Of a stretch of 64,000 nt of DNA, positions 1 through 32,691 are shown in pieces (the first letter of the stretch is position 1; every line of letters begins with the position of its first letter). Under the pieces are notes generated by a model. The model saw nothing but the letters and a program-made list of their open reading frames with translations. It was not told where the DNA came from and made no database searches. A program made the translations under genes and the position numbers. This stretch comes from Roseibacillus sp. Its GTDB lineage: Bacteria > Verrucomicrobiota > Verrucomicrobiia > Verrucomicrobiales > Akkermansiaceae. The DNA lies in the NCBI GenBank assembly GCA_965242925.1, contig CBDEUM010000014.1:581848-645847 (forward strand), given 5' to 3'.

Positions 1-290
1 TCCGTGAGATCCATCTTCCCATCTACGGTCAGTCTAAAATCCTGGTAGATATCCGTATCGGCGGCCTCGTAACGGGCATTCACGCTGAGAAGATCCGTGA
101 ACTGGTACCCTCCACCAACTCGAAAGCCTTCTCCATCGGCGGAAAGACCAGTGCCGGCAATCGTGCCAACCCCGTGTATGAGCCCCGCCTTCAGGTGGAA
201 CTCTCCAGTGGTTTCGTTCGCGCCGATTTCTGCGTGGGCAGCAGCCATTCCGAAAACGCCAGCAGTAAGGAGGAGGGTTATCTGTTTCAT
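1..290 (-). CDS. Exported protein, probable outer-membrane beta-barrel (3' part runs off the window)
   Basis: Not in the ORF track. Read manually: ATG at 290, MKQITLLLTAGVFGMAAAHA signal peptide, then alternating beta-strand-like segments (FRVGGGYQFTDLLSVNARYE). Open to position 1. Confidence 0.6.
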   Translation of the reverse strand, partial: MKQITLLLTAGVFGMAAAHAEIGANETTGEFHLKAGLIHGVGTIAGTGLSADGEGFRVGGGYQFTDLLSVNARYEAADTDIYQDFRLTVDGKMDLT

Positions 291-31343: not shown

Positions 31344-31913
31344 ATGAAACAGCGGAAACTGACTGTCCTTGCCAGCGCCGGGCTCCTGCTCCTCGCCTCC
31401 TGCGGCGACCCGGCCACGACCGAATCGGGTGACTCCACCCCGGCCCTCCAGCAACCCCCTCCCCCCCCCAGTCCGGAGGTCCTTGCCGCTCTCAAGGAAC
31501 AAGCCTTCGGCAGCAAGCTCCTGGGCAGGACCAAGTATCTCGTCGGAGAGGGGTATGTCGCCGCCGACCTGCCAAAGGCTCCTCGCTACTATCTCCTAAA
31601 CTTCAGCGCAAGTTGGTGAGGCCCCTGCAAGGAACACGCTCCAGAGTTACTGGAGAAATACAGAAAGCATGTCTTGCCGAACCCGGCAGTTGAACTGATC
31701 CATGCCAGCTGCGATGAAGTCGCAGAAGAAGCAGTCAAGTGGGCCTACAAGGTGGGTTTCACATGGCCCACCGTCCTCTGGCCGGACTGGGAGGCGGTCG
31801 GGTTAGGAGCCTATGGAGCTTTGGCCGGGGAAATGTTCCTGGTAGATAGCAACGGAACCCTGGTCGCGGAGACCGAGGACGAGGCATTTGCAAAAATTGA
31901 CGAACTAAATTGA
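31344..31913 (+). CDS. Thioredoxin-like lipoprotein, probable selenoprotein (TGA 31617-31619 read as Sec, WUGPC)
   Basis: ORFs 31344-31619 and 31674-31913 are in one frame separated only by TGA; FSASW-TGA-GPC; lipobox LLASC; downstream hairpin; 189 aa with readthrough. Confidence 0.85.
31639..31655 (+). promoter_or_regulatory. Putative bacterial SECIS element 1
   Basis: CTCCAG-AGTTA-CTGGAG hairpin; 25 nt lie between the TGA and the loop. Confidence 0.7.
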
Positions 31914-31971
31914 ACACTTCCCATATGCCATTACGTTAGAACCCAAGGAAGAGGCCTCCTCCCTTATATCT

Positions 31972-32691
31972 ATGAAACTAAGACATCTCCTCCATGTTGG
32001 AATCGTGGCGCTCCTCGGAGTCGGCGCGGTCTCCGCCCGGACATGGACCAGCGCCAACGGGAAAAAGACGTTCGAGGGCGAATTGAAGTCCTTCGACAAG
32101 GAAAACGACACGGTCACCATCGTCTACAGGAACGGCCGCACGGTCACCTTCGGAACCCAAAAACTTTCCGAGGCGGACAGGACCTTCCTTGAAGAAAACG
32201 GCAAGGCGGCGGCGGACGCTGCCGACCCCGCCGACGTGGAAGCTTCCCTGAAAGGGCAAAAGATCGGGAAACCCCTGGCGAAGAAGGGCATCCTTTCCAA
32301 ACTTGAGGGCGAGAAGTTCGCCAATTTTCAACTTGAGAAGGCCCCGCAGTATTACCTCGTCTACTTCTCCGCGAGCTGGTGACCGCCCTGTCGTGCTTCT
32401 GCTCCACAGTTGGTGAAGCAATACAAGGAAGAGGTTGCCGATCATCCCAGCGTCGAGATGATCCACGTGAGTCTGGACAATGACAAGAAGGCCGCAGAAT
32501 CGTGGGCGGCAAAGGAAGGGTTTCCCTGGCCTACCGTGATGAAGGACAACTTGGAGCGCAGCGGCCTTGGGGACTACATCCCGAGAGGCGTTCCCAACTA
32601 CAAACTCATCAGCAAGGATGGGGAGATCGTGGCGGAGGGCAAGGGCGCCGTATTCCAGAAAGTCGCGGAATTGAGCAAGACGGAGGTATAG
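31972..32691 (+). CDS. SHD1-like + thioredoxin-like exported protein, probable selenoprotein (TGA 32380-32382 read as Sec, WUPPC)
   Basis: ORFs 31972-32382 and 32410-32691 are in frame across TGA; YFSASW-TGA-PPC, VSLD, GVPNY; N-terminal RTWTSANG...LSEADR; 239 aa with readthrough. Confidence 0.88.
32400..32420 (+). promoter_or_regulatory. Putative bacterial SECIS element 2
   Basis: TGCTCCAC-AGTTG-GTGAAGCA hairpin (7 of 8 pairs); 25 nt lie between the TGA and the loop. Confidence 0.7.

Follow-up and report, generated by a model that had tools for sequence, protein, structure and literature searches.

Two adjacent genes on the forward strand of a 64,000-nucleotide (nt) stretch of DNA from Roseibacillus sp. 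(contig CBDEUM010000014.1 of assembly GCA_965242925.1, positions 581,848 to 645,847; hereafter the window, or G000:C14:581848-645847, where G000 is this genome) raise the question of whether a single internal TGA codon in each of them is read as selenocysteine (Sec), and whether the small hairpin that follows each TGA is the RNA signal for that reading. In the open reading frame (ORF) list made with translation table 11, each gene is given as two same-frame ORFs with the TGA between them. A first-pass annotation, made from the letters alone, had proposed that both genes carry a hairpin with an AGUUR loop resembling a bacterial selenocysteine insertion sequence (SECIS) element and including a compensatory base pair. 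Our analysis leads us to conclude with high confidence that both hairpins are genuine bacterial SECIS elements and that the in-frame TGAs are read as selenocysteine, giving exported U-x-x-C thiol-disulfide oxidoreductases. The hairpin is an RNA-level element that is exclusive to the Sec forms of this protein family, its paired positions covary, and selenocysteine machinery is present in the genome.

Gene layout and predicted products

Gene 1 consists of ORFs 31344-31619 and 31674-31913 in one frame, and translation through its TGA gives ...NFSASW-U-GPCKEHAPELLEKY... with the active site SASW-U-GPC; gene 2, which is the longer of the two, gives ...YFSASW-U-PPCRASAPQLVKQY... with the active site SASW-U-PPC (Table 1). 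The UxxC motif is present in both proteins, which are 42% identical to each other, and the frame is open on either side of each TGA. A third paralog on contig C22 carries a single TGA at the same site, and the three are mutually 42-48% identical. The N-termini of genes 1 and 2, judged by eye, are signal-like, with a lipobox-like L-A-S-C in gene 1 (also by eye) and a signal-peptide-like sequence plus an extra N-terminal domain in gene 2. Pfam matches at or above the cut-offs were obtained for gene 1 with Thioredoxin_8, Thioredoxin and AhpC-TSA, and above the cut-offs for gene 2 with Thioredoxin_8, AhpC-TSA, Redoxin, Thioredoxin and Thioredoxin_2. Against the NCBIfam models dsbE, ResA and StoA both proteins score only 22-40 bits, compared with cut-offs of 123-359; they are not members of these named equivalogs, though they would work like such enzymes. 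The gene 1 TGA is kept in the three orthologues found (L024, L025 and L109). The gene also ends in a second TGA (31911-31913), and its mRNA would thus read UGA both as Sec and as stop; TGA is therefore not globally reassigned.

Table 1. Coordinates and hairpins of the genes discussed; plain numbers are positions in the window, and hairpins are written as 5' arm / loop / 3' arm
Feature	Position	Strand	Hairpin	Start of loop after UGA	Description
Gene 1	31344..31913	+			Predicted exported thioredoxin-fold protein, 189 residues including Sec; read-through translation
Gene 1 probable Sec codon UGA	31617..31619	+			Aligned with first Cys of WCxxC in Cys homologues
Gene 1 probable SECIS hairpin	31639..31655	+	CUCCAG / AGUUA / CUGGAG	25 nt	Over codons for A-P-E-L-L-E
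Gene 2	31972..32691	+			Predicted exported thioredoxin-fold protein, 239 residues; read-through translation
Gene 2 probable Sec codon UGA	32380..32382	+			TGA kept in orthologues, 95% to ~35% identity, family-wide
Gene 2 probable SECIS hairpin	32400..32420	+	UGCUCCAC / AGUUG / GUGAAGCA	25 nt	
Third paralog (L018)	G000:C22:23140-23829				Single TGA, same site as genes 1 and 2
SelB ORF	L001:796-2754	minus			
SelD, Sec form	L085:127-196; G000:C14:573757-574881		Stem 7-8 base pairs, loop GUC	33 nt	S-S-C-A-G-U-A-S-K; ~7 kilobases upstream of window start
FdhA, likely selenoprotein			GUCGCC / GGUCU / GGCGGC	18 nt	
AhpD/CMD-like, likely selenoprotein	L086:294-363; G000:C14:245518-246237	minus	GCGGCCG / AGUU / CGGCCGC	19 nt	CxxU
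FG-GAP + DsbD_N, likely selenoprotein	L087:427-496; G000:C34:28896-30719		GUCCAC / AGUUU / GUGGAC	19 nt	S-T-U-C-S-T-F-C
Hypothetical, likely selenoprotein	L088:1-768; G000:C14:321334-322101		GUGGCGC / GGUCA / GCGCCAC	20 nt	G-S-T-U-C-R
FG-GAP/UnbV_ASPIC, likely selenoproteins	L090:1-2607, L091:1-2121, L092:1-3531 (contigs C12, C17, C20); further copies G000:C34:106063-106707, C30:153037-153669, C13:146350-146931, C29:2455-2775		GCGCAC / GGUC / GUGCGC or GCGRCA / GGUCG / UGUCGC	17 nt	

The two hairpins and the pairing of gene 2

The features that the first-pass annotation had read directly from the letters, namely a 5-nt loop exactly 25 nt past each TGA, the paired arms, and a loop-closing pair that changes together with the encoded residues, are all found in the sequence. 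In gene 1 the 25 intervening nucleotides (31620-31644) lead to the loop AGTTA (31645-31649), and the arms CTCCAG (31639-31644) and CTGGAG (31650-31655) form six perfect pairs; the hairpin alone has an energy of -7.4 kcal/mol and is contained in the minimum-free-energy fold. In gene 2 the loop is AGTTG (32408-32412), and the arms TGCTCCAC (32400-32407) and GTGAAGCA (32413-32420) span eight positions with one mismatch that the annotation had passed over. The six-pair core joins 32402-32407 with 32413-32418; counted from the loop, its fourth pair is a C.A mismatch, the same GTGAAG variant that occurs in 22 of the 98 Sec rows described below. The stem is lengthened by two outer pairs of a kind typical of the V-K-Q clade. 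This core hairpin alone reaches -4.5 kcal/mol. The loop of gene 1 is closed by G-C and that of gene 2 by C-G, and the encoded residues are E-L-L and Q-L-V, respectively (E/Q and L/V). The C22 paralog has CTCCAC/AGTTG/GTGGAG in the same layout and at the same spacing, with -7.8 kcal/mol for the hairpin alone, and the stem begins 19 nt past the TGA in all three paralogs.

For gene 2, a different structure, a UGCUUC/GAAGCA pairing with a large loop, might be the functional one. The 64-nt minimum-free-energy folds of the two genes have energies of -14.5 and -15.9 kcal/mol, and that of gene 2, like its 96-nt fold, uses this pairing in place of the mismatched and weaker AGUUG hairpin. The 5' partner TGCTTC is not conserved, however, as gene-2 orthologues read AATTCT, ACTTCT or AGTTCT at this place, whereas CTCCAC-AGTTR-GTGAAG is invariant in the gene-2 clade and the mismatch is often compensated by two further outer pairs (G-C and U-A). 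We therefore regard it as very unlikely that the alternative pairing, rather than the AGUUG hairpin, is the functional structure of gene 2.

Restriction of the hairpin to selenocysteine forms

Homologues were gathered regardless of the hairpin, as 61 loci from species-representative genomes and through a search of 301 genomes from within the family, which gave a homologue in 246. Among the matches listed, 10 were without a stop codon, one had TAA only and the remainder had TGA, as counted by eye. The sequences read were 29 loci returned by the family search, 62 lower-identity rows with TGA, the 10 rows with no stop codon and the one TAA row. Merging of identical 93-nt fragments and removal of one spurious antisense match and one N-containing row left 98 distinct Sec rows, and five further Sec forms (L183, L144, L152, L158 and L164) were read separately.

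The loop motif AGTT stands at TGA+26..29 in all 98 aligned Sec rows and in the five further sequences, that is, in 103 of 103 Sec forms from many genera, and the spacing from UGA to loop is 25 nt in every Sec form examined. At least five of the six pairs form in 94 of the 98 aligned rows. Equal conservation in Cys-encoding orthologues, which the first-pass annotation had named as the observation that would count against a SECIS element, is not what was found: AGTT is absent from this position in all 62 rows of the Cys set, two of which are spurious, leaving 60 Cys homologues. No row of this set forms six pairs and four rows form five, with 40.6% of cells paired compared with 89.8% in the Sec forms.

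In a 401-genome sample of the phylum the homologues found outside the family are all Cys forms, and every Sec form encountered in the searches belongs to a single verrucomicrobial family, in genera other than Akkermansia; the thioredoxin-like family can therefore not tell whether AGUU is tied to the gene or to its host. This selenoprotein subfamily has 2-5 paralogs per genome, some in tandem. Three of the Sec forms (L144, L152 and L158) are without the resolving Cys, reading W-U-P-P-G or W-U-P-S-A, and keep the hairpin.

A conserved RNA structure could also have a role apart from SelB, such as pausing for export or folding or an effect on mRNA stability, with Sec inserted by means of another element. 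The hairpin is weak and has no equivalent of the bulged U of the Escherichia coli element, which would suit a role of this kind. It accompanies the TGA without exception, however, and occurs in no Cys form, the SECIS consensus is matched both in position and in the G-U of the loop, and no other conserved structure was found from -15 to +75 in the Sec-row alignment. Furthermore, comparable hairpins with RGUY loops follow the TGA of unrelated selenoprotein genes in this genome. A non-SelB role is accordingly an improbable explanation, and a SECIS function remains the interpretation that we favor.

Codon choice and covariation

The first-pass annotation had cautioned that part of the similarity could lie at the protein level, and in its full form this view denies any RNA element and ascribes the shared nucleotides entirely to protein conservation where a thioredoxin-fold helix opens with A-P-Q-L-V-E. 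The motif does coincide with the beginning of the first helix that follows CxxC, Cys homologues also commonly show a 'P-x-L-V' pattern, and the three paralogs are similar overall. The synonymous sites, however, are fixed only in the Sec forms. The Leu codon after Q or E is TTR in all 93 Sec rows that have Leu, compared with CTN in 26 and TTG in three of the Cys rows; the preceding codon is CAG or GAG in 98 of 98 Sec rows; and the nine Cys forms with a Q-L dipeptide all use CAR-CTN (by eye). The Cys form L032 encodes the identical APQLVEK heptapeptide, with GCT CCG CAA CTC GTG GAA, and forms no hairpin. The hairpin codons, which include GCT and CCA, are rare in this genome: TTG and TTA account for 7.6% and 0.9% of Leu codons, GCT for 13% of Ala and CCA for 12% of Pro, in open frames of at least 500 codons rather than curated genes. 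Multiplied together, these genome frequencies give the A-P-Q-L-V-E codon set of the paralog a prior probability of roughly 2 in 10,000.

Covariation was scored on the 98-row alignment with the six-pair structure, using 500 shuffles and controls in which the partner was slid. Paired cells amounted to 89.8% compared with 83.4% in shuffles, none of which reached the observed value, and to 34-57% with the partner slid. Cells with changes on both sides numbered 32 compared with 5.1 expected, again reached by none of the 500 shuffles, and occurred in five of the six pairs. Variants of the stem CTCCAC/GTGGAG include TTCCAC/GTGGAA, CGCCAC/GTGGCC, TTTCAC/GTGAAA, CCCCGC/GCGGAG and CTCCAG/CTGGAG, several of which require coupled residue changes (P to S with E to K; V to A; E to A), such as CCA to TCA with GAG to AAA. 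When the hairpin residues are masked for tree building, a minimum of 1 (the closing G-C), 3, 3, 4 and 5 changes is required to account for the compensated states. The compensatory pair that had first drawn attention is a single event that marks the gene-1 clade, where G-C is kept in four of four rows. Given the synonymous sites and these coupled changes, an explanation through protein conservation alone is already contradicted and we consider it highly improbable.

Selenocysteine machinery and evidence against the assignment

The genome encodes a SelB that scores above the NCBIfam curated cut-off and contains the domains GTP_EFTU, Beta-barrel_SelB, SelB-wing_2 and SelB-wing_3. A tRNA-Sec with anticodon tca was found by both Rfam and ARAGORN, and SelD is itself present in a Sec form (Table 1).

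Several results weigh against the assignment of the hairpins as SECIS elements. SelA was not found in this assembly with TIGR00474 and PF03841; 18 of the 19 congeneric genomes do have it, and its absence here is probably an assembly gap, because the assembly is 89.9% complete. RNAalifold gave no pairs on the 98-row alignment or on four narrower slices of it. In a folding check of the kind suggested in the first-pass annotation, folds of 64-96 nt differ from shuffled sequences by z-scores of only -0.2 to -0.9, which are not significant; the other candidate SECIS elements of this genome likewise gave no significant scores. The median energy of the hairpin alone is -6.4 kcal/mol, with -7.5 reached by 36 of 98 rows and gene 2 among the weaker ones, and mismatches occur at pair 2 in 17 and at pair 4 in 23 of the 98 rows. 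The minimum-free-energy fold of each row's own 70 nt shows the hairpin in 73 of the 98 rows and not in the other 25. No Rfam family matched, the sole match being a spurious long non-coding RNA at 15 bits compared with a gathering score of 70. A bulged U corresponding to U17 of E. coli fdhF is not evident in the 5' arm. With regard to the statistics, the event counts come from a rapidly built FastTree tree of ~120 columns and may therefore be inflated, and the Sec rows are related and partly hand-chosen, so that the shuffle statistics overstate their independence.

The genome scan for the strict pattern likewise returned the paralogs only, with no excess of TGA over other triplets. There are 76 AGTTR-loop hairpins with at least five contiguous pairs genome-wide, and TGA stands at -28 in two of them compared with ~1.2 expected under equal triplet frequencies. 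The bare pattern count is therefore not above chance; the evidence lies in the frame, the conservation and the covariation. Together with the machinery, the Sec-only hairpin, the synonymous-site conservation and the covariation strongly support the central proposal of a SECIS element just 3' of a Sec-UGA. Standard ORF calling, with its two ORFs per gene, and the missing SelA might suggest that the TGAs are true stops or inactivating mutations (split genes or pseudogenes) or are read as another amino acid, but well over 100 homologues of many genera retain the TGA at the catalytic site, in alignment with Cys and followed by an intact frame, gene 1 itself terminates in TGA, and SelB, tRNA-Sec and SelD are present with SelA in congeners, which leaves this reading extremely improbable.

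Comparison with known SECIS elements and selenoproteins

The bacterial SECIS model of bSECISearch (Zhang and Gladyshev), as outlined in PMC13188914, describes a loop of 3-9 nt, a stem of 4-16 base pairs (bp), a spacing of 16-37 nt between UGA and loop, a G in the first two loop positions that is mostly followed by G or U, and an energy of at most -7.5 kcal/mol. Like the elements described by that outline, the hairpins reported here are stem-loops inside the ORF just 3' of the Sec-UGA, with a 5-nt loop, an upper stem of 6 bp, a spacing of 25 nt and an A-G-U-U-R loop in which G is followed by U. With respect to the energy limit the bare hairpins of gene 1, gene 2 and the paralog are borderline or fall short. 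In addition, loop positions 1 and 5 (A with A or G) form no N1-N2 pair, which the model, in the same account, describes for most elements.

In the E. coli fdhF element, according to the account in PMC8659212, U17, G23 and U24 are conserved, and U17 and G23 are contacts of SelB. The present hairpins share the apical-loop G-U with it, and in both cases other positions vary and co-adapt with the coded residues. They differ in the loop itself (AGUUR here, GGUC there) and in the location of the loop G, which counted from the U of UGA is position 30 here and 23 there, 7 nt further. FdhA of the same genome keeps the E. coli-like form, with its G at position 23.

Marine metagenomes have been known since 2005 to encode UxxC thioredoxin-fold selenoproteins, under the names 'Prx-like' and 'thiol-disulfide isomerase-like' protein (Sargasso Sea, PMC1088965; tabulated in PMC13188914). 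The proteins of genes 1 and 2 resemble those entries in their thioredoxin fold, UxxC motif, Cys homologues and marine bacterial origin, and differ from them in that the subfamily is predicted to be exported, often has an extra N-terminal domain and is multiplied within genomes. A literature search found no dedicated paper on SECIS elements of Verrucomicrobia, nor on FG-GAP or ASPIC selenoproteins, and one supplementary file of BSepDB, searched for family names, gave no match among the names tried. As the hairpin appears to fit the published bacterial SECIS consensus, and the proteins appear to be of the known UxxC thiol-disulfide-isomerase-like selenoprotein kind, we consider the hairpin ordinary, a further instance of something already known.

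In mechanistic terms, a ribosome arriving at the in-frame UGA would meet a stem-loop 19-41 nt downstream that is bound by the C-terminal winged-helix domains of a SelB carrying Sec-tRNA(Sec), with the G-U at loop positions 2-3 as the likely contact. UGA would then be read as selenocysteine to give exported TlpA/ResA-like oxidoreductases with a U-x-x-C active site. We infer SelB binding, the GU contact and Sec insertion from sequence comparison. Under this model the RNA requirement would override codon choice and limit the peptide to [A/V]-[P/S]-[Q/E]-[L/F]-[V/A/L]-x, and where a stem base is altered its partner is altered as well, even at an amino-acid cost.

Other candidate selenoprotein genes and loop classes

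A de novo scan of the genome for TGA with coding-like flanks and a downstream hairpin was followed by Pfam searches on 20 candidates. Twelve of these read-through candidates had no Pfam family and were treated as chance open frames, with the exception of L088. The genes retained in Table 1 are likely further selenoprotein genes of this organism. Their loop sequences share R-G-U-Y, so that AGUU is one of two classes and the spacing is not fixed.

The AhpD/CMD-like gene reads C-Y-Y-U-T-L-S-H and has an 8-bp hairpin with an AGUU tetraloop; all 12 orthologues found in 20 genomes of the genus retain the TGA, the loop and, with G-U variants, the stem. The FG-GAP + DsbD_N gene has a hairpin core, CCAC-AGUUN-GUGG, that is the thioredoxin-like core in the same codon phase, at 19 rather than 25 nt past the UGA, and it therefore also encodes P-Q-F-V. 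This hairpin is kept in one 88%-identical orthologue. The best hairpin of SelD, with its GUC loop, is unlike both the AGUU and the GGUC elements. The hypothetical protein has no Pfam match, and its N-terminal part resembles, by eye, the N-terminal domain of gene 2 and of the C22 paralog.

A much-expanded family of FG-GAP + UnbV_ASPIC (CRTAC1-like) proteins of 800-1400 amino acids has one in-frame TGA each in the context D-L-U-S-x-x-W-R, with a GGUC-loop hairpin 17 nt downstream; one member has an AGUUU loop instead. Matches were obtained in 31 of 121 family genomes and, among the matches listed, TGA is present in all but one fragment, with up to 12 per genome (by eye). In PMC4807772 (Table S9) this family is entered only as 'selenoprotein gene candidates', and the review PMC13188914 does not name it.

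These genes bear on two further proposals of the first-pass annotation, that the hairpin defines a lineage-specific SECIS and that it could be used to find further selenoproteins. With regard to the former, AGUU loops do recur in two other selenoprotein genes of this genome, but GGUC and GUC loops occur as well and the general consensus fits. With regard to the latter, the strict pattern recovers paralogs only, while relaxed searching for AGUU leads to the AhpD/CMD-like and FG-GAP/DsbD_N genes; with a stem of at least 6 bp within open frames it returns gene 1, the C22 paralog and the FG-GAP/DsbD_N gene. The hairpin is thus only partly supported as a lineage-specific search key. As one genome has two or more loop types, which start 17-33 nt past the UGA, a single lineage-specific pattern would miss most of its selenoproteins.

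A more speculative possibility, which we put forward tentatively and think less likely to be right than wrong, is that SelB of this verrucomicrobial lineage accepts two interchangeable loop classes, GGUC and AGUU, and that CCAC-AGUUN-GUGG is a portable cassette with a flexible distance from UGA. Such a cassette, always in NAG-UUN phase, would have been installed independently in unrelated ORFs (thioredoxin-like at +25 nt, FG-GAP/DsbD_N at +19 nt) and would impose one peptide, P-Q-[L/F]-V, on proteins that differ in fold. In the AhpD-like gene, as in one member of the FG-GAP/ASPIC family, the AGUU loop stands on a different stem.

Implications

For annotation, the probable Sec reading of genes 1 and 2 restores full-length exported redox enzymes from genes that the table-11 listing splits at the TGA. 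The thioredoxin-like subfamily also offers a clean natural example of dual coding, in which a 17-nt RNA signal fixes rare codons and its pairing couples residue changes across ~100 homologues. With the likely additional genes of Table 1, this marine verrucomicrobial family is seen to carry a sizeable selenoproteome.

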